Source: Synechococcus sp.
GTDB taxonomy: Bacteria > Cyanobacteriota > Cyanobacteriia > PCC-6307 > Cyanobiaceae
Direction: 5' to 3'
Assembly: GCA_047285535.1 (NCBI GenBank)
Contig: JBJBDC010000001.1
Span: 1,120,136-1,184,135, forward strand
Length of the DNA stretch: 64,000 nucleotides
Both the position numbers and the translations under genes were made by a program. The notes under the pieces were generated by a model. That model saw only the letters and a program-made list of their open reading frames with translations. It made no database searches and was not told where the DNA came from. Position 1 is the first letter of the stretch; the number at the start of each line of letters is the position of its first letter. Of the stretch, positions 35,969 through 45,861 are shown one piece after another.

Positions 35969-36193
35969 ATGGCCCAAACCAAGCTGACCATTGGTGAACT
36001 TGAGGCGGGTTACCCCCTTTACTGCAAAGCCTTACGCAGGCTTCTCAAAGAAGGCAGAAGCCTGAAAGACATCGAAAGAACAGTGTGCTGGGGACACCTA
36101 GAAACGCTCAATCGTTGCTTACCTGGCCGTTACAAAGCACCGTCCTATCTCATGGCTTTAATTCGAAGGGATCTGGAGCAACCGAAGCAGTAA
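35969..36193 (+). CDS. DUF3136 family protein
   Basis: LTIGELEAGYPLYCKALR...RTVCW; the small picocyanobacterial protein usually found beside cbbX. Confidence 0.85.
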   Translation: MAQTKLTIGELEAGYPLYCKALRRLLKEGRSLKDIERTVCWGHLETLNRCLPGRYKAPSYLMALIRRDLEQPKQ

Positions 36194-36198
36194 AAGGC

Positions 36199-37122
36199 TT
36201 ACAAAGCATCCATAAGTGTTGTCAGAGGTAGAGAAGGATCACGCCCCTCGATCTCACCCTGAAACACACGACTCGCCAACACATCCTCTGCTTCGATAGT
36301 GGTGAGATCACTTCGATTGAGAGGTTGATCCATGCGAGAAAACAACCGATTGGCCTGACGAAGCCTCAGACGATCAAGTGCATTGCGAATCGAACGGGCG
36401 TTGGCAAAGAAAGGCAACTGACGTCGCCTATTGATATAGCGTGCAAAGGCAGCATGAGCTGATTCACTAAAGTGGTATTCCTGCTGATTGAGTAAGAGTT
36501 GAGCAATCTTCATGAGCTCATCTTCGCTGTAATCAGGAAAATCGATATGGTGCGCCACTCGCGAGGAAAGGCCAGGATTGGCTTCGTAAAAACTAGCCAT
36601 TCGATCCTTATATCCAGCAAAGATCACCACAAAATTTGCACGTTGCTTCTCCATGTCCTGCAAAAGAATTTCAATTGCTTCAGCACCGTAATCGCGCTCA
36701 TTATCTGATTTATAGAGATAGTACGCTTCGTCAATAAAAAGTACGCCACCCTGGGCTCGCTTAATCATCTCCTTAGTTTTTGGGGCTGTATGTCCAACAT
36801 ATTGACCAACAAGATCGTCACGCGTTACGGAGATAACATGACCTTTGCGCAAATAGCCAAGGCGGTGAAGAATCTGTGAAATTCTTATGGCGACTGTAGT
36901 TTTTCCTGTCCCAGGCCTCCCTGTAAATGACATGTGCAAACCAGGCACGGTACTTTGCAAATCCATCTGCTCACGCGCCCGATCGACCAATAACAGAGCA
37001 ACAATTTCACGGATACGGGTCTTCACAGGCCTAAGACCTACCAACTCCTTGTCAAGCTGATGCAGCACCTCCTCCAAACCTGAATCGGCATAGGCAGCCG
37101 CCAGATCAACAGAAGAGAGCAT
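36199..37122 (-). CDS. cbbX: CbbX AAA+ ATPase (RuBisCO activase-like)
   Basis: Motifs [37 protein letters not shown] and FANARSIRN. Confidence 0.96.
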
Positions 37123-37357
37123 CGATCTCAGCCGCAGCGCGACGATCGTTCATACTCAGCTTGCCATCCACACTCTCGTCTTCAGGACGAAGCGTGATAT
37201 TTACATAGGTACGACCAAAACTGATGTCTGGAAATCGCTGTGTAGCCTCGCTGTAATCTCCAAGACGGTCAAGGAAATTACGCGTTGCACTGTAGCTGTC
37301 AAACTCAAAGCGACGCTCAAGACAGACTGGGCGCTTGCGCTCATGCCATTGGTCCAT
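37106..37357 (-). CDS. Pterin dehydratase-like alpha-carboxysome RuBisCO assembly factor (acRAF/PCD-like)
   Basis: [16 protein letters not shown]...[15 protein letters not shown]; lies immediately upstream of cbbX. Confidence 0.85.
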
Positions 37358-37620
37358 AAAACCATTCTTAGGGTTAGCTTCAAACCTAGTAGAAAAACAC
37401 CCTAAACCTATTAAGGGAACATCAATATGCAATCAAAGACAAAAAGAAGAGCATGAACAAACAATCAGCAGACAAAGCAGGGCAAACAACAGATCAAAAG
37501 CCACATCCGTTCAAACTACAAACAAAGAAATAAAAGGCCATAATCTGACCTAAAGTTAAAAACAGGATCTGAAGAGAAGCACGAACAACCGAGACATCAC
37601 AGAAAGGCCAGGAACCTCAC

Positions 37621-37642
37621 CAAACACAAACAAACAAACAAA
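37621..37642. repeat. (CAAA)n simple repeat in an A-rich tract
   Basis: Sequence caaacacaaacaaacaaacaaa. Confidence 0.6.
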
Positions 37643-37750
37643 TCACTTGACAAACAAAAGGCAAAACAGATACGCCGCAACGACAATTTTGATACGAAAT
37701 ACTTTAGCGAAGACAACAAGAATATCACAAGACAAATCTAGAGTAAAAAC

Positions 37751-38053
37751 ATGGAAAACTTTAAATTATTTCAACGGTCACTAGAAAGTAGTCATCGAAG
37801 AGATGACACCAATCAAATAATCAAAGAAGAATCGATTAAACTGGAAGGAGCCATATCAGAACTAAGCCATGCAAGCACAGTACTTGCGGGCCTAATGGAT
37901 ATTGTAGATGATGATAATTGTAAATCCTGGTTGGTATTTCTTGACGACGCAAGAGCGTCAACCATTGCAGCCTACAACACTATTAATACGGCCAACAATG
38001 AACTCATAAACAAGGACGGGTACCAAAAACATTCCAACTCCAACTGCTACTAA
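37751..38053 (+). CDS. Hypothetical protein (AT-rich insert)
   Basis: 100 aa ATG ORF that stays open in stop-rich AT DNA; helical/coiled-coil character. No family recognised. Confidence 0.5.
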   Translation: MENFKLFQRSLESSHRRDDTNQIIKEESIKLEGAISELSHASTVLAGLMDIVDDDNCKSWLVFLDDARASTIAAYNTINTANNELINKDGYQKHSNSNCY

Positions 38054-38083
38054 AGCAATCAAAAAAGATACTCGATCAAAACA

Positions 38084-38272
38084 ATGAAAGCCACCCAGAA
38101 CGAATTACTAGAGTCATTCATCGAAACGATTGAATCCAGTCAAGTGAAGAGAGAACGTTGGCTCAAGAAAGTTGGTCAATTTGGACTAGACCAAACGCTT
38201 GGAGAATACAGCGATCTAATGCAAACAAGCGGACGCAGAGAGTCAAATGATCAGCAGTTCGGAAATCAATGA
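38084..38272 (+). CDS. Small hypothetical protein (AT-rich insert)
   Basis: 62 aa ATG ORF co-oriented with, and directly upstream of, the flavodoxin gene. Confidence 0.45.
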   Translation: MKATQNELLESFIETIESSQVKRERWLKKVGQFGLDQTLGEYSDLMQTSGRRESNDQQFGNQ

Positions 38273-38367
38273 AACATTCAAAGTACAAAAATAAACAGTA
38301 GCATTGGCACAGATGGACAAAGAGAAAGGACCTAATGAAAGAAAATATATATGTAATTGCTCAAAGT

Positions 38368-38877
38368 ATGGCTTACACAATTTTTTTCGCAACCTCAACA
38401 GGAAAGACTGAGGATGTTGCCGACAAACTCAAAGAACTGATGCCTGGCACTGAAACGAAAGATGTTGATAACATCAGTTCAGCCTCAGAATTGGCAGAAG
38501 CGGAAGCTTTAATTTGCTGTGTTCCAACATGGAATACGGGGGCAGACGAAGGTCGATCAGGAACGGCATGGGATACTTATGCCGAAGAAATACCAAGTAT
38601 GGATTTCAGTGGGAAAACGGTGGGAATCGTGGGACTAGGAGATTCATCATCTTATTCCGATTATTTCTGTGATGCAATGGAAGAATTATACACGGCATTC
38701 CTTCAGGCAGGTGCAAAGATCATTGGCAAAGTTCCTACAGATGGTTACACGTTTGAAGATTCAAAAAGTGTGATCGACGGAAAGTTTTGCGGGTTGGCAA
38801 TTGATGAAGACAATGAATCCGAGTTGACAGATGAAAGACTAAGTAATTGGGTTAAACAAATAGGGACAGAAGCATAA
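38368..38877 (+). CDS. isiB: Long-chain flavodoxin
   Basis: FMN-binding motifs FATSTGKTE, PTWNTG, GLGDSSSYSDYFCDA and GLAIDEDNE. Confidence 0.93.
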   Translation: MAYTIFFATSTGKTEDVADKLKELMPGTETKDVDNISSASELAEAEALICCVPTWNTGADEGRSGTAWDTYAEEIPSMDFSGKTVGIVGLGDSSSYSDYFCDAMEELYTAFLQAGAKIIGKVPTDGYTFEDSKSVIDGKFCGLAIDEDNESELTDERLSNWVKQIGTEA

Positions 38878-38940
38878 ATAAATAATTGTTATGCCGAAGC
38901 GCCCTTTCGTTTTGGGCACTTCGGCATAACAATTATTTAT
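38878..38940. terminator. Long inverted repeat, probable bidirectional terminator
   Basis: Arms ATAAATAATTGTTATGCCGAAGCGCCC and GGGCACTTCGGCATAACAATTATTTAT (27 bp, one mismatch) with a 9 nt loop, between the convergent flavodoxin and TrxR genes. Confidence 0.8.
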
Positions 38941-39892
38941 GGACCCAATCGACACGAACTTCATTCCTTGAATTTAAAAATTTATCAATTGACATGGCGG
39001 CAATGCAACCATCAGAGCAGGCAACAATAGCCTGCTTGAAGGGTGTATTACGGATATCTCCAATAGCCCAAACACCTGGAATGGTCGTCATCATATTCTC
39101 ATCTACATCAACACCACCATCCTCACGAAGTGGGATAAGACCATGAAGATAGTCGGTAATCGGCAATGTACCAGTAGAGTATAAAAAGACACCAGAAACG
39201 TTCAATGAAAATGTTTTTTTGTCTTTAATAGCTTGAAGCTTTGTCGAATGGATCCCATCTTCAGCCCCATCTATAGATAATAGCTTCGTACGTTGCCATT
39301 GTTTCACATTAGGTAGTTCCGTTAACAACTCGATTCGATGCGTAGAACGACTGGGCTTAGCACTAGTGATCCAATGCACAGTTTTTGCAAATTTAGCTAG
39401 AACAAGAGCTTCATCAACCGCTTCTTGATTGGAGCCATAAACGAGAACATCCTCATTTCGATAAAAAGCAGCATCACATGTAGCACAGTAACTAACTCCT
39501 CGACCTAGAAATTCCTTCTCTCCTGGTAGTGTCGATGTTCGCCCCATAGCACCAGTAGCTAAAACAATCGTACGGGAACGAAATACTCCTTCTGGTGTAT
39601 ATGCAAGTTTTAATTCACCAGATAAATCGAGACTAAACACTTGAGCACGCACATAGTTTGTACCATAAGAGATTGCCTGGTCTCTCATCATTTCAAGCAA
39701 AGTAAAACCCGATACCTCCTTAGAAACACCTGGATAGTTAGCAATTTTATGAGTAATTGCTAGAGCGCCTACGGAAGAATTCTTATCTAAAATATAGGTC
39801 TTTAGAGATGACCTAGATGTATAGAGTGCACACGAGCAACCCGCAGGACCTCCACCAATGATCAGAACATCCGCATCAATATAATCTGTCAT
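38933..39892 (-). CDS. Thioredoxin reductase-like flavoprotein (ferredoxin-dependent FFTR/DTR type)
   Basis: FAD motif IIGGGPAG and active site GVSYCATCD. NADPH motifs are degenerate (YGSNQEA; no HRR). C-terminal VDWVHK. Confidence 0.85.
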   Translation of the reverse strand: MTDYIDADVLIIGGGPAGCSCALYTSRSSLKTYILDKNSSVGALAITHKIANYPGVSKEVSGFTLLEMMRDQAISYGTNYVRAQVFSLDLSGELKLAYTPEGVFRSRTIVLATGAMGRTSTLPGEKEFLGRGVSYCATCDAAFYRNEDVLVYGSNQEAVDEALVLAKFAKTVHWITSAKPSRSTHRIELLTELPNVKQWQRTKLLSIDGAEDGIHSTKLQAIKDKKTFSLNVSGVFLYSTGTLPITDYLHGLIPLREDGGVDVDENMMTTIPGVWAIGDIRNTPFKQAIVACSDGCIAAMSIDKFLNSRNEVRVDWVHK

Positions 39893-40650
39893 AAGGAGAT
39901 TTCACTAGTGATTGTAGAGACAAATTGATTAGGAAAAATTGGCGAGAATGATTCTGGAACCATCTCTAAAAAAGAGTTGATCATTGCTCCATATAATTTC
40001 GGCTGCGAAAAATGTGAAAAATGGCGTCCTCTAGGCAAAGAATAAAAGCGGTCACCATTTTTCAAGTGAGGTTTCCACCTGGTGGCTGAGTTTTGATCAA
40101 TGACAAAATCATGGGAGCCATTGATGATCGACAAGGGTATATCTATTGAAGAAAGATTTTCCAGTGAAGAATGAGATGCAATGGATCCAGAAATATACTC
40201 AGAATCAAGACACGTTGCAAACAATTTCGGGAGCACTTGATTTGCATCCCCAAATTCTCTATCAAATAAGAGTGGAATAATATGAGATAAGATTGCCGCT
40301 CGTGAGCAAGGCAATTTTCGCCTCATCTCTAAATAATGACTTGACCATTGATTTGTAGAGATGGGATCAACAGAAATCAAGGTCAATGATTTGAATAAAT
40401 GTGGAAATTGTCCTGAAAACAATGCAGCGACAGTACCGCTAATACCATGAGCAATGACATGAGGTGATTGATCTAATTTTTCAAGTGTCTCTTTTAAAAG
40501 GCAAAAAATTGTAGATAAAGAGCAAGTTTCATCAGGGTCATGCTGAAAAGACCAGCGTCGTACGTGCCTTGACTGACTTAAAATACAAGACAGTTTTTGA
40601 TTAAAACAAAAAAGAGATGGCTGCAAATCAAGCCAAAGGATCGATGACAT
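39889..40650 (-). CDS. IsiC-like alpha/beta hydrolase
   Basis: ILWLDLQPSL..FNQKL, HDPDETCSL, HVIAHGISG and SLTLISVD resemble cyanobacterial iron-stress IsiC. Its stop overlaps the TrxR start. Confidence 0.7.
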   Translation of the reverse strand: MSSILWLDLQPSLFCFNQKLSCILSQSRHVRRWSFQHDPDETCSLSTIFCLLKETLEKLDQSPHVIAHGISGTVAALFSGQFPHLFKSLTLISVDPISTNQWSSHYLEMRRKLPCSRAAILSHIIPLLFDREFGDANQVLPKLFATCLDSEYISGSIASHSSLENLSSIDIPLSIINGSHDFVIDQNSATRWKPHLKNGDRFYSLPRGRHFSHFSQPKLYGAMINSFLEMVPESFSPIFPNQFVSTITSEISL

Positions 40651-40721
40651 GATAGAAATATGCTTCTATAATACTGCTACGGAAAAAGCAAACTCAAGAG
40701 CCAAGAAGCACAGGAGAGAGA

Positions 40722-40946
40722 TTAATATGTTACAGCGGGTCTGGACGTATGATCATAATTGATACTAGGAACAACTTGAATAATTCCTTCCTTAATTTTA
40801 AGTTCAAGAGAAGCGATCAGTCTATATTCGGCACTGTCGGCTTCGCCTTTTAAAAAGAGCAAGGCGTTCAACGAAGAGCTATGTATGACCATAGAGGTGA
40901 CTGCATCTAAATAGATCGAAACGATTGACGAGATCTCCATGACCAA
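40722..40946 (-). CDS. Possible small hypothetical protein
   Basis: 74 aa ORF co-oriented with and upstream of the isiC-like gene. No motif recognised. Confidence 0.3.
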   Translation of the reverse strand: MVMEISSIVSIYLDAVTSMVIHSSSLNALLFLKGEADSAEYRLIASLELKIKEGIIQVVPSINYDHTSRPAVTY

Positions 40947-41781
40947 GAAGTTAGTGTGATTAAATTACAATTAAAGGCAAAATACTAAAATAGTCCGTGA
41001 GCAATTGCCAGAGAAAGTGAAGTTACTCTTGAATACTTTCAGGGTAGATTGTATGTCTCTCATGATCTTGAACAGGACGTGTAATCCGTACTACTCTCAG
41101 GCTTTTCATAGCGTGAAAAGAAAACATTTTTTTCAAAATTCTAATTTCTGAGACATCAAGCAGATCTTCATAAGTCATAATTTAGCAAAGGCTACTCGAA
41201 GGAAGCAGGATCATATGATTTGGCAGGATACTCCTGATACTTTGTGAAAGCAAAATTGATTGTTGCCAAGATAATTCTTGAGAAGAAAACTAATCTAGGA
41301 AAAGGTTGGATCATCCAAAGCATTAAATGTGATTTACCAACAGTACATTTTTGCAACAGCATCTCATGATGCATGATAAAGCAACAATCACTACTCGCCC
41401 TAGAATCATCACAAGGAACGATAAAAAGGTTTGATCATTGAGCAGAGGCTAAACTCTCTACATTTGGATTATTACTTTTCATTCATAAGCAATGATCGCA
41501 ATTCGTGCAATTACGGGATGAACGAAATAATTCGCCTAGAAGCAGTCTCAAAAAAATCCGCAAAAACAATCACTAGAAAAAGTATTAGAAAAACAATATG
41601 CAGAATGAGCCAATATGGGACGAGATGACTAGTAATAGCCACCCTGAAAAGATAGCTTCATATCACAACAACTAAGTGCCTCGTTCTTCCATTAAAATCC
41701 TCATAGTATTGAGTGCTAAATCTATTATTGAAGGCTTAATCTACTTAGCAATACCACTTGAATCAAAACAGCAGGAGAATA

Positions 41782-41804
41782 TCATTAGCAATAATTCCTA
41801 ATGA
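41782..41804. promoter_or_regulatory. Imperfect palindrome, candidate Fur-type operator
   Basis: TCATTAGCAAT-A-ATTCCTAATGA (11-1-11, one mismatch) with an AAT-N-ATT core, inside a cluster of iron-related genes. Confidence 0.35.
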
Positions 41805-42038
41805 GTCTCTGTCAAAAGAACAATCGCCCCCCCAAACGATGGCTTCTATTGGATTATGCCTACAATACAGGTGTGCAAACCAAACGTTTGCAAATAATTC
41901 ATTGCTGAGACAAAAACAGTGCTAAAAGTGAAAGCTAAAAAACAAAAAACGCTTTGCTTGTCTAGCCCCAACAAGCATATGATTAATCATTAAGAGGAAT
42001 TTCGTTCAATTTGAAAGAATTTTATTTCACAAACTCTC

Positions 42039-42332
42039 CTACCAAAGCTCTTCTTCGCAATCTGTCTTAACTACCAGATTAGATGTTGCATAGGCAACGC
42101 ATAATAAAACATAATTATCATTTATTTGACCTTCATCTAAAAAACTCTGATCCGTTTGATCGAGTGTGCCTTCAATTAGCTTGCCAACGCATGAGCTACA
42201 AGCCCCAGCGCGACAAGAGTAGGACATATCAATACCAGCCTGCTCTGCTGCATCTAAAATATACTCATCATCGGGACAATCAAATGATGCCGTGCCTTGA
42301 GGTGTAATCAGCTGAACACTAAAAAATGTCAT
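42039..42332 (-). CDS. petF: Plant-type [2Fe-2S] ferredoxin (extra paralogue)
   Basis: Motifs YSCRAGACSSC, DQSFLD and LLCVAY. Confidence 0.92.
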   Translation of the reverse strand: MTFFSVQLITPQGTASFDCPDDEYILDAAEQAGIDMSYSCRAGACSSCVGKLIEGTLDQTDQSFLDEGQINDNYVLLCVAYATSNLVVKTDCEEELW

Positions 42333-42560
42333 TACAAAAATAGTGCGGATACAACTTTATTCCATCTAATCCATCATTCGAAACATTCAGCTATATGCAG
42401 CGTATCATTTAGCACTAGTGGTTAAACAATGGCGACAAGGAGGTGCGTAATTAGATGATTAACCTGAGTCCATGTGGCCATTCATTTCGATCATTACGAT
42501 AGAGCTTTTAATAACATTTTTCTTCTCGCTTATTACCACAACTGATAACTTAAATGAAAT

Positions 42561-42788
42561 ATGAATATCAACATGTCTAATGAACGGTTTTCTCGATTTC
42601 TTGGTAACGCCCATGGATGGAGATCCAAACGTCTAAGACTTGCATTAGCGCTTAGAGAGCAAGGTTGGACTTACAAAAAGATTGGCGATCATCTCAGCAC
42701 GACTCCGCGCTCAATCGGTAGAGATATTAAATGTTTTGTGATTAAATCGAGAGAAAAAACGACTGTTCAAGTTTCGATGACTGCATAG
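42561..42788 (+). CDS. Small helix-turn-helix protein
   Basis: LALREQGWTYKKIGDHLSTTPRSIGRDIK fits an HTH pattern; divergent from the ferredoxin gene. Confidence 0.6.
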   Translation: MNINMSNERFSRFLGNAHGWRSKRLRLALALREQGWTYKKIGDHLSTTPRSIGRDIKCFVIKSREKTTVQVSMTA

Positions 42789-43237
42789 GTTTTTAAAAAT
42801 CATAAGTGTCTTCAATCAGTCTATGTATTGTTTAGCTTGAAAATATGCAAATGCGAGTCGATCTCATTTCAACTTCTTGTGCCATATCCTCAATCACTTC
42901 TTTATTCGCCAGAAGTGATTCTTAAGGCCTATGCAAAGATTTTTTGCCTGGATTTTTGCATCCTATTTACACAAGGCCATCCCATTTTAAATGTCCTTGA
43001 AGTAAAATCAAATCGCCTTAATCCTCAAAAACATATAGAGGAACTTCGCTCTTAGAGAAAAATCTATGATCTTCGCAATCACCCATTTCAAATATTAGTT
43101 CCCAGTCATCATCCGCCAAATGAATTGCAAGGACATACAAATAAATGCGGATTTTAGAATAATTTTTTAAACCTCAAGCTATATATCTTTCATGGTGAGT
43201 TTTGCATAAAAGGCATTAAAAGCAACACAATCATAAT

Positions 43238-44356
43238 TTAAAGGAGTGCTTCGCGCCGGCATCCCATCAACCGCTCTGACCAGCTTTCAGCATAAGCGCG
43301 ATTAGCCTTTTGCTGATCACTATGGTCAGTATCAAGTGGATAGGGCATAGTGCCTGTAATCGCGCCATTTGTAACACAAAACATTGACTTCTGAAAACTT
43401 ATGCAGATTTGTACATGAACATCATTTAGTCCCCTTCCATGCGACTCATACCAATGACTAAGCTCCTCTGGAAGATTGCGATACATATCTTGCATGCACA
43501 AACTGGGTGGTATACCCGCTCCCATGCTGGGAATTGGATCTGCATACAGAGCGCCATACTTAAAATCACTGATATCAGCAGAAATTTGTCGAGCTTGGGC
43601 GTTATAGGAGACAGTTCCTAAAAAAGGCATTCCTCGAAAAAAGACTGCTTCGACATAAGGAACAGCAACATCAACGAGAAAAGTGAGTCCTGCTTCTGGT
43701 GGAAGAATCCATACATCTTCTTTCCCAACAGCGACTTTATAAGAGATTGGATTTCCCGCTGCGGCCACAAGGCCATCTCTGATGTGATGAACCGCATCAT
43801 TAACAGAAACAATTTCACCATTTCGATATCGTCGCGACAGATCAAGAAACAAATCACTCATCACACGCCAAAAAAGGCCGAGAGCATAGATGGTCGCCAT
43901 GGAACGGATTGCCTCAGGAGCAAATCCCGGATAAAGCGTATGAACCAAAGCCAACAATGGGTCTCGGCGGCTACGCAGCGAAATAAGTCTCTGACAGGTT
44001 TCCAGGAAAGGCTGGGAATCGAAATAAGCATCCATTCCACCTGTTCCGTGCCAAAACATCGCTTTTTGGCAATACTCGGCGTACTCGAAGTTAATACGAT
44101 TACCGCATAGGTGCTGCCATAGGCGCTGAAAACTGAAACCCTCGTGAAAAAAACGCATCACAGGGAATGGATTCAGAAGCTGAGTTTCACCTTGATTAAC
44201 CAAGTTACGACTATAAGCATCAAGAACAATCCCATAGCTATCCAAAACATTGACAATCTGTAGAAGATGATCTGGCGTGTCTTCCAGCAAGGGTTGATCA
44301 GACAGGAGACGACGAATCAACTCATCACGATCTGGCAGGGTTGGAACGGCAGTCAT
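43238..44356 (-). CDS. cupB: CO2 hydration protein CupB/ChpX
   Basis: Motifs RINFEYAEYC, FRGMPFLGTVSYNAQA, YGALYADP...GAGIPP and SFQKSMFCVT; 372 aa (CupB length). Confidence 0.93.
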   Translation of the reverse strand: MTAVPTLPDRDELIRRLLSDQPLLEDTPDHLLQIVNVLDSYGIVLDAYSRNLVNQGETQLLNPFPVMRFFHEGFSFQRLWQHLCGNRINFEYAEYCQKAMFWHGTGGMDAYFDSQPFLETCQRLISLRSRRDPLLALVHTLYPGFAPEAIRSMATIYALGLFWRVMSDLFLDLSRRYRNGEIVSVNDAVHHIRDGLVAAAGNPISYKVAVGKEDVWILPPEAGLTFLVDVAVPYVEAVFFRGMPFLGTVSYNAQARQISADISDFKYGALYADPIPSMGAGIPPSLCMQDMYRNLPEELSHWYESHGRGLNDVHVQICISFQKSMFCVTNGAITGTMPYPLDTDHSDQQKANRAYAESWSERLMGCRREALL

Positions 44357-45861
44357 GACAGACCTCCTATCGAGGGGAACAGGGCTAGTTCGCTTAAGCC
44401 TGTCGTTGCGGCCTGACTGATCCCAACCAAAAGATCAGGAGCTAGTCCAAGAAGAAGCACAAAGAAGGAAAGGGCAATAGCAGGAAGTTGCTCTTGAAGC
44501 GGTACGTTCGAAAGAATGGTTGGATTGGAGACGCTGCCTGCAGCAATGGCCAGTCGTCCAAAAAAGGCCCGATTCACAAGCAACAAGAAATAAACAGCTG
44601 TCAAACCTGAACCCACCATGCAAAGCAAAGTGGGAAGAGGAAACGGCCCCAAGCTGCCCCTAAATACGAGAAACTCAGAAATAAAACCAGCCATACCAGG
44701 GATTCCGGCACTGGCCATCACACCAATGATCATCAAGGTGCCGGTCAAAGGAAGTCCACGCTGGGGATTGAGCAATCCTCTAAGAACATTCAAATCTCTG
44801 GTACCGGTTCGTTCGTAAACAACCCCAACAGCAAGAAAGAGCACTGCTGAAATCAAACCATGACTCACCATTTGAAATAGGGCACCAATTAAACCCAACG
44901 GCGTTGCTGCAGCCGCAGCCAAAAGAACATATCCCATATGTCCTACGGAGCTGTAAGCCACCATCCGTTTCATATCCGACTGAGCAATGGCCGCCAAAGA
45001 GCCATAAAGCACAGAAATTGCAGCCCAAAGCGCCAGCCATGGTGCTGCCAACTCCCACGCCTCGGGAAAGAGCCCGAGACAGAAACGCAACAAGCCATAG
45101 GTGCCCAACTTGAGGAGAACCCCCGCCAAAAGGACTGAAACAGGAGTGGATGCTTCAGTGTGAGCATCAGGTAACCAAGTATGGAAAGGGAAGAGAGGGA
45201 TCTTGATCCCAAAACCTATGAGCAAAGCTCCCATCAACAACAACTGAGAAGTGAGACCCATCTCTCCAGACAAAATTGGATGGATGCCGAAGTCGACGCT
45301 TCCTGTTACGAGAGCGATACCAAGGAACGCGCCCAATATTAATATTCCAGACACAGCAGTCACAATGAGAAATTTTGTGGATGCATAAGCTCGATTGGAA
45401 CCTCCCCAAACAGCAATTAACAACCAAAGCGGGATCAGCTCTAGCTCATAAAAAAGGAAAAAGAGAAGCAAATTTTGAGACAAAAAAGCTCCATTAACTG
45501 CGCCACTAATAATCAACAACAAGGCGAAGTAAATTCGCGGTCGATTCTCTATGTTTCGAGATGCCAATGCTGCAACAAGACACAAAACAGCATTGATTAA
45601 TACCAACGGCAGAGAAATTCCATCTACTGCCAAAGAGTAATCAAGACCAACACTGGGCAGCCAGGGGAGATGTTCTTGAAGCTGCAAGCCAGGATTACTC
45701 GGTTCAAACCAGAACAGCACCATAAAACTTACAATGGTTTGAACCGAAAGGATGAGCAGAGTGAGACGCCTGAGTTGAGCCGAACCCGATCCTGCTGGCC
45801 ACAAGGATAAGAGAAGCGCACCTAGAAAGGGGATCAAAAGCAGGAAAGTAAGAATCATCAT
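44353..45861 (-). CDS. ndhD4: NDH-1 subunit D4 (CO2 uptake)
   Basis: Motifs FYELELIP, PFHTWLPDAH and LLKLGTYG; lies between ndhF4 and cupB. Confidence 0.92.
   Translation of the reverse strand: MMILTFLLLIPFLGALLLSLWPAGSGSAQLRRLTLLILSVQTIVSFMVLFWFEPSNPGLQLQEHLPWLPSVGLDYSLAVDGISLPLVLINAVLCLVAALASRNIENRPRIYFALLLIISGAVNGAFLSQNLLLFFLFYELELIPLWLLIAVWGGSNRAYASTKFLIVTAVSGILILGAFLGIALVTGSVDFGIHPILSGEMGLTSQLLLMGALLIGFGIKIPLFPFHTWLPDAHTEASTPVSVLLAGVLLKLGTYGLLRFCLGLFPEAWELAAPWLALWAAISVLYGSLAAIAQSDMKRMVAYSSVGHMGYVLLAAAAATPLGLIGALFQMVSHGLISAVLFLAVGVVYERTGTRDLNVLRGLLNPQRGLPLTGTLMIIGVMASAGIPGMAGFISEFLVFRGSLGPFPLPTLLCMVGSGLTAVYFLLLVNRAFFGRLAIAAGSVSNPTILSNVPLQEQLPAIALSFFVLLLGLAPDLLVGISQAATTGLSELALFPSIGGLS

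Follow-up and report, generated by a model that had tools for sequence, protein, structure and literature searches.

Within the 64,000-nucleotide stretch of DNA analysed here (the window), which comes from the marine picocyanobacterium Synechococcus sp., the segment at 38-44 kb stands out by its low GC content (0.37-0.41, compared to 0.51-0.55 in the flanks). It holds an accessory, horizontally mobile cassette in which orf62 and a flavodoxin gene converge with a ferredoxin gene, the variably present orf74b, an isiC-like gene and the gene of a putative ferredoxin-dependent flavin thioredoxin reductase (FFTR), accompanied by a small helix-turn-helix (HTH) gene (Table 1).

Table 1. Genes and sequence features of the cassette region in the window.
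Feature	Position	Strand	Basis
orf100, small acidic ORF 5' of flavodoxin, no family	37751..38053	+	ORF list
orf62, small conserved ORF immediately 5' of flavodoxin	38084..38272	+	conservation
Long-chain flavodoxin (IsiB/FldA type), 169 aa, pI 4.05	38368..38877	+	PF00258, NF006738, TIGR01752
Near-perfect hairpin (22 + 4 pairs) between convergent stops	38878..38940	.	fold energy
FFTR ortholog, 319 aa	38933..39892	-	5j60/6xtf match, motifs, Trp tail
isiC-like alpha/beta-hydrolase-fold protein, 253 aa	39889..40650	-	Abhydrolase_1 below cut-off; synteny
orf74b, small ORF upstream of isiC-like gene	40722..40946	-	ORF list
AT-rich spacer, 1.1 kb, without convincing ORF, unique in genome	40947..42038	.	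genome copy count, ORF scan
Terminator-like hairpin just 3' of fdx	41955..41977	-	terminator-like site scan
Plant-type [2Fe-2S] ferredoxin (fdx), Fdx1-like, 97 aa, pI 4.05	42039..42332	-	PF00111, TIGR02008, 6xtf_C
11-mer ATTCGAAACAT, candidate operator or promoter element, 44 nt 5' of fdx start	42376..42386	-	shared placement
hth75, small HTH protein, basic (pI 11.3), transcribed away from fdx	42561..42788	+	HTH_23, conservation

The flavodoxin matches PF00258 (E 1.3e-21) and passes both NF006738 FldA and TIGR01752 flav_long (249.8 and 171.3 bits; cut-offs 172 and 146.75, respectively), and the solved structures closest to it are those of long-chain flavodoxins with 169-180 aa. A longer open reading frame opens at 38335. 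Since the FldA model aligns only from residue 12 of that frame and 48/48 orthologs begin with M-x-x-(T/G)-I-(F/Y), the start at 38368, adopted in an earlier reading of this DNA made without database searches (the sequence-only reading), is likely the true one. Upstream of the flavodoxin gene and on the same strand, orf62 recurs in 12 of the 20 cassette loci of 19 kb with 38-66% identity, and has no Pfam or NCBIfam match. For orf100, which has no Pfam match and whose relatives (51-55% identical, upstream of orf62) occur in G016 and G009 only, the evidence for a real gene is weak. The flavodoxin and FFTR genes had been read as convergent, and their stops indeed face each other at a distance of 55 bp with the hairpin in between (-42.3 kcal/mol, z -8.4; 0/200 shuffles as good). 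Such a structure would likely serve as a two-way terminator. As the genes are convergent, they do not form one transcript.

The protein encoded opposite the flavodoxin had been assigned to the cyanobacterial FFTR (formerly DTR) family due to its CATC motif, the lack of the NADPH-binding motifs GGGxxA and HRRxxxR, and a Trp-containing tail. All these features were recovered: CATC at residue 136, YGSNQEA at 152, HWITSAKP at 173 and VDWVHK at 314-319. The FAD-binding GxGxxG is present as GGGPAG at residue 13. Where Mycobacterium TrxR has GGGDSA and the basic motif, the window protein reads YGSNQEA and HWITSAKP, and in the host NTRC, used as an internal control, VVGGGDSACEEA...HLLVRSDHLR stands opposite the same positions, with the NADPH motifs kept. 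The cysteines C136 and C139 are unchanged across 29/29 aligned sequences; D315, W316 and H318 are likewise invariant, and the RVDW(V/I)H tail is invariant or nearly so.

Among solved structures the best match by far is the Gloeobacter violaceus FFTR (5j60/6xtf, E 6.2e-127, residues 4-318 aligned), whereas the NADPH enzymes lie around 1e-50 (next best after 5j60, an NTR, 8.1e-51). The clostridial FFTR, named beside that of Gloeobacter for a phylogeny in the sequence-only reading, is much more distant (6gna, E 1.9e-28). Matches to TrxR-like FNR structures are at E 1e-13 or weaker. The diflavin-linked disulfide oxidoreductases (DDOR; kin of Gll2934 and Slr0600) were considered as another family and rejected (5n0j, E 3.1e-18; 5jri, E 1.1e-14). 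At the domain level, Pyr_redox_2 is found (E 2.3e-31, Pfam), and the score against TIGR01292, the equivalog model of NADPH thioredoxin reductases, is 283.1 bits, below the cut-off of 343.45 that the host NTRC clears (354.7 bits). With the Gloeobacter enzyme (PDB 5J60; Fdx1 complex 6XTF) the window protein has in common the CxxC motif, the lack of NADPH motifs, the C-terminal Trp (W315 in Gloeobacter, to which W316 of the window aligns) and a length within 2 residues, and it is 60-61% identical to a Gloeobacter-like copy. Every sequence test run supports a predicted NADPH-independent reductase of the FFTR/DTR type.

Coupling of the FFTR gene to an isiC-like gene was also borne out, as the isiC-like stop and the FFTR start overlap by 4 nt (ATGA). 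The isiC-like gene lies directly 5' of FFTR in 21/21 same-genus loci and in 19 of 20 wider loci. Its product scores 23.7 bits against Abhydrolase_1, below the cut-off, and most of the 41 aligned homologs carry a nucleophile elbow GHG(I/L/V)SG, not GHSxGG or the canonical G-x-S-x-G. Relatives are named pimeloyl-ACP methyl ester carboxylesterase in the JGI automatic annotation. This name is the sole source of a BioH identity, which was dropped: no NCBIfam BioH model matched at E 0.001 or better. Homologs with 28-39% identity are present in 82/151 cyanobacterial genomes, and in 4/28 loci from other cyanobacterial families they lie immediately 3' of a flavodoxin gene on the same strand (28-33% identity). 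The named IsiC of model strains presumably belongs to the same group. The association of flavodoxin with an isiC-like hydrolase-fold gene is common to the window and to the isiA-isiB-isiC operon of other cyanobacteria, but in the window the partner of the isiC-like gene is FFTR and not the flavodoxin, and the cassette has no isiA. In one distant cyanobacterium the isiC-like-FFTR pair adjoins an IsiA-PsaL fusion gene and in another a heme oxygenase gene, which we count in favor of a wider link to iron stress. For orf74b, upstream of the isiC-like gene, there is no Pfam match, relatives with 41-68% identity occur in 5/20 loci, and its status as a real gene is weakly supported.

An extra ferredoxin had been noted about 2 kb from FFTR, and the distance is 2.1 kb. 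It matches PF00111 (E 7.4e-21) and TIGR02008 (134.7 bits, cut-off 81.15), is one of 7 Fer2-domain matches genome-wide, and has as its second-best solved relative 6xtf_C, the Gloeobacter Fdx1 crystallized with FFTR (E 2.4e-36, full length, without a C-terminal extension). Like the flavodoxin, it is strongly acidic. The spacer on its 3' side is single copy in its own genome with ORFs of at most 60-65 aa, and G018, G016 and G009 have an equivalent gap of about 90 bp. Because of this spacer and the terminator-like hairpin, the fdx gene of the window is probably not co-transcribed with FFTR.

Divergent from fdx, hth75 scores 20.6 bits against HTH_23, below the cut-off, and accompanies the cassette in 15/20 loci with 52-76% identity, which makes it a candidate cassette regulator. 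The 11-mer ATTCGAAACAT occurs once in the 64-kb window. G018 and G016 have it at the equivalent position, and in G344, G374 and G153 it lies 5' of the isiC-like gene. Other searches for regulatory sites gave little. The Rfam scan of 36000-44500 yielded no matches at E 0.1 or better, and a sigma-70 promoter scan of 37300-43300 returned 15 sites with 16.8 expected. NtcA/CRP-like GTA-N8-TAC sites, one mismatch allowed, were not significantly enriched upstream of either the flavodoxin genes (12/18, 8.6 expected; 42/500 shuffles as good) or the isiC-like genes (9/17, 9.8 expected); for these sites only the fixed positions, not the counts, are notable.

The sequence-only reading had proposed looking for co-occurrence of FFTR with isiB in other genomes. 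In the Synechococcus-like genera the two are physically linked: in 39/39 FFTR-bearing genomes of four such genera (g1, g29, g48 and g50), and in 21/21 same-genus loci, the flavodoxin gene is convergent with FFTR at a distance of 44-115 bp. In g1 and g29 both genes are present in exactly the same genomes (16/29 and 18/29), a trivial outcome of linkage and shared descent. A second flavodoxin is encoded elsewhere in 17 of the 39 cassette genomes, and the linked one is still kept. The cassette genes have a GC content of 0.33-0.50, compared to 0.5-0.6 in the flanks; among 20 loci the insertion site of the window holds the cassette only in G018, G016 and G009, and fdx, hth75, orf62 and orf74b are variably present.

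Family-wide, the association is looser. No flavodoxin match was found in 19/157 FFTR-bearing genomes, among them four with completeness of at least 90% (G087, G117, G350 and G390), and FFTR therefore does not need flavodoxin; FFTR is missing from 31/169 genomes with a flavodoxin. The small Prochlorococcus-like genomes show no linkage of the two genes: in 20/20 of those having both on one contig, 228 kb to 1.37 Mb lie between them. In the FFTR tree the small-genome enzymes form a clade apart from the cassette enzymes (support 100/99). Since both the FFTRs and the flavodoxins of the cassettes group apart from the small-genome ones, an origin of the island from Prochlorococcus was dropped. Several conserved blocks also distinguish the cassette FFTRs from the Gloeobacter and Prochlorococcus-like ones, for instance VYGSNQEA vs. 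VVGxN(K/P)EA, GRTSTLPGE vs. GRPASFKGE and VACSDG vs. VAASDG.

The context of the enzyme differs between these organisms as well. In Gloeobacter FFTR is the sole thioredoxin reductase, and the Gloeobacter-like copy (L025) has no flavodoxin or isiC-like gene within 1.5 kb, unlike the window. Prochlorococcus FFTR, 59-62% identical to the window enzyme, with the same tail and placed with it in ortholog group CK_00001904 of a published table, has also been named the sole thioredoxin reductase and read as a low-iron adaptation (PMC8154056; PMC12796991). There it is a core gene of small genomes without FTR or an adjoining flavodoxin (in g43, FFTR 29/29, FTR 0/29, no neighboring flavodoxin), whereas in the present host it is cassette-borne, with a neighboring flavodoxin and with FTR in the genome. 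FTR (FtrC/FtrV) has the same proposed job, passing electrons from a photosystem I carrier to thioredoxin, but it is unrelated in fold and in its chemistry, which relies on a 4Fe-4S cluster and a disulfide. The host encodes ftrC (PF02943, E 4.9e-41) and NTRC, so that FFTR is here an accessory third system. The suggestion that the FFTR route replaces the Fe-S-dependent FTR relay holds for this host only in the sense of a conditional back-up, because intact ftrC and NTRC are still there. Among the relatives the situation varies. Next to sufB (92-93% identical across the compared genomes), ftrC is intact in G024. In four cassette-bearing relatives it is degenerate or not found: G008 has lost the Cys of its CPC/CPC/CHC motifs, in G002 and G017 the gene beside intact sufB is truncated by a stop and fragmentary, respectively, and in G014 ftrC was not found beside intact sufB. 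This decay suggests an ability of FFTR to stand in for FTR, and an ongoing exchange of the two within marine Synechococcus like the one previously described in Prochlorococcus and Gloeobacter.

Parts of this picture have been published: the FFTR family itself, a cluster of flavodoxin and "thioredoxin reductase" in low-iron Synechococcus, and the low-iron induction of trxB/trxR. The cluster, Syn-eCAG_011, is reported to be common in Synechococcus of low-iron (HNLC) waters, holds isiB1 and trxB, and was assigned to a Synechococcus genomic island (2023, PMC10119275); the cassette of the window is most likely the same. The table for that cluster labels the reductase "NTR system", and the sections of the study dealing with it neither identify an FFTR nor discuss its electron donor (PMC10119275). 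In expression data, low iron brought co-expression of trxR and "bioH" with isiA, isiB and idiA (PMC11970481), and trxB, isiB and ferredoxin were raised under an iron chelator in field Synechococcus (PMC9723758). Judging from the annotation names, the field trxR and bioH transcripts would belong to the cassette. What appears new is the cassette enzyme as an FFTR; the literature found neither names it so nor tests flavodoxin as its donor.

The proposed role in iron stress is supported by the conservation of the cassette, the published rise of trxB/trxR together with isiB at low iron, and the decay of ftrC in four relatives. We consider it probable that the cassette is an iron-stress module whose FFTR is fed by an acidic carrier reduced by photosystem I, most likely as an iron-free route to thioredoxin when iron is low. 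FFTR would act as a homodimeric thioredoxin reductase with FAD and CxxC but without NADPH binding. Single electrons would enter from the small acidic carrier, the FAD semiquinone would be stabilized by the C-terminal Trp contributed by the other subunit, and thioredoxin would then be reduced. In an iron-scarce host the cassette could in this way open an iron-free path from photosystem I to thioredoxin beside FTR (4Fe-4S) and NTRC.

Which carrier feeds the enzyme is a separate question. The only demonstrated donor of the cyanobacterial FFTR class is a plant-type Fdx1: the Gloeobacter ortholog (GvFFTR), which does not use pyridine nucleotides, is reduced by Fdx1 (Kd 3.9 uM), requires its tail and accepts Fdx1 but not Fdx2 (PMC8154056). 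Because of this discrimination, it cannot be taken for granted that another carrier would be accepted. Binding in the published FFTR-Fdx1 complex is reported to be mainly electrostatic. The cassette ferredoxin can probably feed FFTR; that the flavodoxin can do so is possible, if on balance slightly doubtful, and its contribution would be greatest when iron starvation is severe. The predicted complex of the FFTR dimer (with FAD) and flavodoxin (with FMN), run without controls, gave scores of 0.00, 0.45 and 0.12 (median 0.12, compared to a mark of 0.32) and counts neither for nor against the pairing. Direct donation from flavodoxin is the central proposal of the sequence-only reading, and nothing in the present data or in the literature found shows such a transfer; the convergent arrangement of the two genes and their separation in Prochlorococcus-like genomes speak against it. 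The cassette ferredoxin is as good a candidate donor as the flavodoxin, and the "all-flavin chain" of the sequence-only reading is a plausible hypothesis. Carried further, the linked isiB1-type flavodoxin would be the physiological reductant, electrons would pass from photosystem I via flavodoxin and FFTR to thioredoxin without any iron atom, and acquisition of the module would let oceanic Synechococcus discard FTR like Prochlorococcus, relatives with decaying ftrC being perhaps midway. This extended form is offered only tentatively.

Other explanations have to be weighed against an iron-stress module. The most serious one, which we rate as possible but doubtful, is that the Fdx1-like ferredoxin is the dedicated donor, the two travelling together as a matched pair, and that the flavodoxin is another iron-stress gene of the same island, serving different acceptors, for example FNR. 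In that case the route would be iron-sparing (2 Fe vs. 2+4) and not iron-free. Fdx1 as sole demonstrated donor with partner-specific binding (PMC8154056), the close relation of the cassette protein to 6xtf_C and the position of fdx 5' of FFTR on the same strand in 10/20 cassette loci agree with such a pair, as do the induction of a ferredoxin at low iron in field Synechococcus (PMC9723758) and the specific ferredoxin of strains carrying isiA and isiB (Dufresne 2008, PMC2441476). However, the ferredoxin is absent from the other 10 of the 20 loci, whereas the flavodoxin is present in 20/20, the probable separation of fdx from the FFTR transcript in the window speaks against a coupled pair, and an extra iron protein as sole donor fits the enrichment in low-iron waters poorly.

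It is also conceivable, if unlikely, that flavodoxin and FFTR have no functional coupling and are neighbors through one mobile island, with adjacency kept by descent. The genes are convergent with a strong, likely terminator hairpin between them, the pair is unlinked in Prochlorococcus-like genomes, and according to the trees all cassettes may share one ancestor, in which case the 39/39 genomes are not 39 independent events. Mere descent, however, does not readily account for a spacing that is held while FFTR identity drops to 60% and the cassette changes sites and genera, for the coming and going of fdx, hth75, orf62 and orf74b among the same loci, or for the linked flavodoxin being retained beside a second copy. 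That the enzyme is a conventional NADPH-dependent thioredoxin reductase defending against oxidative stress, as implied by its entry in PMC10119275 (supplement file 5, "thioredoxin-disulfide reductase (NTR system)") and by its treatment in PMC11970481, is highly improbable: both NADPH motifs kept in the host NTRC are replaced, the TIGR01292 cut-off is missed, and the identity of 60-61% is to an enzyme shown to work without pyridine nucleotides (PMC8154056).

In all oxygenic phototrophs, thioredoxin reduction connects light with carbon metabolism. For the way in which this connection is kept when iron is scarce and flavodoxin takes the place of ferredoxin, the cassette offers a compact natural test system, 5 kb holding the reductase together with two potential donors and a putative regulator. 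The predicted FFTR identity corrects the "NTR system" annotation in a widely used picocyanobacterial resource, a label that led field studies to read the low-iron induction as oxidative-stress defence and not as an iron-sparing swap of thioredoxin reductases. In the organism itself, the cassette FFTR is probably a low-iron back-up for the iron-sulfur thioredoxin reductase of the host.

The thioredoxin-reductase-like gene at the centre of this region belongs to a known enzyme family, the ferredoxin-dependent flavin thioredoxin reductases (FFTR, formerly DTR), an assignment made on sequence grounds since every family trait looked for is present. The sequence-only reading had named these traits correctly: CATC at residue 136, YGSNQEA at 152, HWITSAKP at 173 and the C-terminal VDWVHK. 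The top match by far among all solved structures is the Gloeobacter violaceus FFTR (5j60/6xtf, the latter being the complex with Fdx1; E 6.2e-127 over residues 4-318, C-terminal Trp aligned), compared with approximately 1e-50 for NADPH-dependent reductases, 1.9e-28 for the clostridial FFTR and 3e-18 and 1e-14 for diflavin-linked disulfide oxidoreductases (DDOR). A Gloeobacter-like genomic copy, which equals the 5j60 chain over the stretch compared, shares 60-61% identity with the window reductase. The curated NADPH-reductase model is not passed (283.1 vs. a cut-off of 343.45 bits). It is passed by the 454-aa NTRC of the host (354.7 bits), which also has a thioredoxin domain and whose GGGDSA and basic motif align exactly to YGSNQEA and HWITSAKP. 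The CxxC cysteines as well as D315, W316 and H318 do not vary among 29 aligned orthologs. According to excerpts of two papers on the cyanobacterial enzyme (PMC8154056; PMC12796991), pyridine nucleotides give no activity, plant-type Fdx1 reduces FFTR (Kd 3.9 uM) and Fdx2 does not, and the C-terminal tail is needed, its Trp stacking against the partner subunit's FAD and stabilising the semiquinone. The gene cluster is already in print, with isiB1, isiB2 and trxB in cluster 11 of a table of Dore et al. (PMC10119275, excerpt), but the reductase is annotated there as an NADPH enzyme: supplement file 5, as excerpted, labels trxB (CK_00001904) 'thioredoxin-disulfide reductase (NTR system)'. Given the motifs and the similarity to 5j60, this label looks wrong.

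The source genome is picocyanobacterial, 3.03 Mb in one contig. GC falls to 0.37-0.41 within approximately 37.5-43.2 kb vs. 0.51-0.55 in the flanks, where core photosynthetic genes are found (cbbX and a pterin dehydratase gene in one flank; chpY, ndhD3 and ndhF3 in the other). Both the convergence of reductase and flavodoxin and the coupling to the isiC-like gene, pointed out earlier, are borne out by a 55-bp gap between the stops and by an ATGA overlap of the hydrolase stop with the reductase start. The gap holds a near-perfect hairpin (-42.3 kcal/mol, z -8.4, equalled by 0 of 200 shuffles), which probably terminates both transcripts. The small basic HTH gene, hth75, is divergent from the ferredoxin gene and is a candidate regulator of the cassette. 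The AT-rich spacer is single-copy in the genome, and it resembles an insertion or a gene in decay because the three closest relatives with the cassette have a corresponding gap of only about 90 bp.

Features of the low-GC region and of related loci elsewhere
Feature	Position	Strand	Remark
orf100, orf62			two small ORFs, first in order, before flavodoxin
Long-chain flavodoxin	38368-38877	+	
Thioredoxin-reductase-like gene (FFTR)	38933-39892	-	319 aa
Alpha/beta-hydrolase-fold gene (isiC-like)	39889-40650	-	
orf74b			small ORF between isiC-like gene and spacer
AT-rich spacer	40947-42038		1.1 kb, ORF-poor, convincing ORFs absent; separates orf74b from ferredoxin gene
Plant-type ferredoxin (fdx)	42039-42332	-	
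11-mer ATGTTTCGAAT	42376-42386		one occurrence in window, 44 nt upstream of fdx start
hth75	42561-42788	+	75 aa, pI 11.3, weak HTH match
Host ftrC	L003:1489-1854	-	beside sufB
isiC-like-FFTR pair, distant cyanobacterium G544	L096:4876-10598		FFTR 61-62% identical
isiC-like-FFTR pair, distant cyanobacterium G541	L097:1480-8109		FFTR 61-62% identical

Several short sites were observed upstream of these genes. The 11-mer occupies the same position upstream of fdx in two relatives (G018, G016), and in three genomes of genus g29 it precedes the isiC-like gene. Of 18 lineages, 10 have a GTA-N8-TAC-like site at positions -84 to -86 relative to the flavodoxin start; for the isiC-like start, 8 of 17 have one at -81 to -83. 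The counts of these sites alone do not exceed shuffled controls.

The neighbourhood of FFTR is a conserved, mobile cassette. The reductase was found in 21 of 36 sampled genomes of the same genus (60-87% identity), always with the convergent flavodoxin beside it and the hydrolase gene directly upstream (21/21). In a family-wide draw of 401 genomes, the window's own included, FFTR is present in 157, flavodoxin in 169 and the FTR catalytic subunit in 258. Of the 157 FFTR-bearing genomes, 138 also have flavodoxin; 19 have FFTR only (four of them at least 90% complete), 31 flavodoxin only and 213 neither. Linkage splits cleanly by lineage: among the matches listed, and setting aside 46 genomes with the genes on different contigs and 45 without flavodoxin among those matches, all 39 FFTR-bearing genomes of the Synechococcus-like genera g1, g29, g48 and g50 have the convergent flavodoxin at a distance of 44-115 bp from FFTR, and in all 20 small Prochlorococcus-like genomes having both genes on one contig the two are separated by 228 kb to 1.37 Mb. 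FFTR and flavodoxin occur in exactly the same genomes of g1 (16/29) and g29 (18/29), which is expected of one unit gained and lost together and is therefore not independent evidence of function.

Among twenty 19-kb cassette loci, flavodoxin and FFTR are present in all, the hydrolase gene in 19, hth75 in 15 (52-76% identity), orf62 in 12 and ferredoxin in 10, and the GC of cassette genes is 0.33-0.50. The cassette shares the window's site in just three close relatives (G018, G016, G009); at the rest of the 20 loci its context is different. In the trees, cassette FFTRs form several clades with the two main genera intermixed, apart from a well-supported Prochlorococcus-like clade (100/99), and the group formed by the cassette flavodoxins includes neither the small-genome ones nor a second flavodoxin. 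The latter, 54-63% identical and forming its own clade, is found at another locus in 17 of the 39 cassette genomes among the matches listed. Its carriers are G002, G008, G014, G017, G032, G036 and G420 (g1) and ten g29 genomes (loci L103-L105); in genome G381 it lies directly 3' of a ferredoxin gene, with FFTR absent nearby.

As the host has both ftrC, encoding the catalytic subunit of the 4Fe-4S enzyme FTR, and NTRC, FFTR is its third thioredoxin reductase system. In the window's host the replacement of the FTR relay proposed earlier fits only as a conditional back-up, full replacement being seen in some relatives but not here. Prochlorococcus-like genera have FFTR without FTR (29/29 and 0/29, respectively, in g43), in agreement with PMC8154056. 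Within the window's genus, four genomes with the cassette have a degenerate ftrC at the syntenic position or yielded none, the adjoining sufB being 92-93% identical: cysteines of the CPC/CPC/CHC motifs (cluster and redox) are lost in G008, a stop follows residue 66 in G002, only fragments (37% identity) are left in G017, and no match was obtained for G014; in G024 the gene is intact (loci L098-L101 for all but G014). As a natural experiment, this suggests that FFTR is able to take on the function of FTR in Synechococcus-like cells. Among the papers listed by the literature search, none combined ftrC and CRD1, and PMC10545762 nowhere mentions thioredoxin. In G117 (genus g82, 3.0 Mb, 98% complete) FFTR is present at 61% identity and neither flavodoxin nor the FTR catalytic subunit was matched; this Synechococcus-sized genome may depend solely on an FFTR supplied by ferredoxin.

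Published field data point to iron control. As excerpted, PMC10119275 describes the cluster of flavodoxin and thioredoxin reductase as common in low-iron (HNLC) Synechococcus, PMC11970481 reports that the Synechococcus genes whose expression most strongly follows isiA, isiB and idiA at low iron include trxR and 'bioH', and PMC9723758 reports that an iron chelator raises trxB, isiB and a ferredoxin. Because the JGI name for relatives of the window hydrolase, 'pimeloyl-ACP methyl ester carboxylesterase', is that of the BioH enzyme, the field 'bioH' and 'trxR' signals would come from the cassette operon. The best homologs of the hydrolase outside the family lie directly upstream of FFTR in two distant large-genome cyanobacteria, with no flavodoxin adjoining either pair (L096, L097); one pair adjoins an IsiA-PsaL fusion gene and a phycobilisome linker gene, the other a heme oxygenase gene, an MFS transporter and an AraC regulator. 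In four further loci outside the family a homolog is directly 3' of flavodoxin, which is the isiB-isiC arrangement of other cyanobacteria. Throughout the isiC-like family (homologs L067-L095) GHG(I/L/V)SG replaces the usual GHSxGG of alpha/beta-hydrolases, the canonical form being kept in just 3-4 of 41 aligned homologs, and Asp (D181) and His (H210) are conserved. The replacement makes the automatic 'BioH' name doubtful, and judging by these motifs the protein may differ from standard serine hydrolases.

Ferredoxin is probably a donor to the cassette FFTR. Fdx1 is the only proven donor, FFTR discriminates between ferredoxins, and the cassette often carries a ferredoxin of its own that is Fdx1-like; among solved structures, the second-best relative of this ferredoxin is the Fdx1 in 6xtf. 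These points also weigh against donation by flavodoxin, as do the few near-complete genomes having FFTR without flavodoxin and the lack of co-transcription of convergent genes. Yet the linkage of flavodoxin to FFTR is invariant over approximately 40% sequence divergence and several genomic sites, and the linked copy is kept even where the second flavodoxin exists. The flavodoxin is strongly acidic (pI 4.05, the same as the cassette ferredoxin), which suits a binding site described as mainly electrostatic, and FFTR takes single electrons, as the stabilised semiquinone implies. Flavodoxin is an established general stand-in for ferredoxin with its partners, which PMC8154056 mentions by way of analogy. 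On balance we consider flavodoxin a possible donor, its chances slightly short of even. In the literature searched, outside which lay subscription journals, no test of flavodoxin as FFTR donor was found, and the papers naming flavodoxin together with FFTR/DTR hold only analogy or reference-list mentions.

The main novelty lies in the proposed flavodoxin/FFTR electron-transfer step and in the decay of ftrC in relatives. The biology of the cassette is coherent and directly testable, and its best-supported reading, which we hold to be likely, is that of an iron-stress cassette supplying an iron-free thioredoxin reductase fed by the acceptor-side carriers of PSI.
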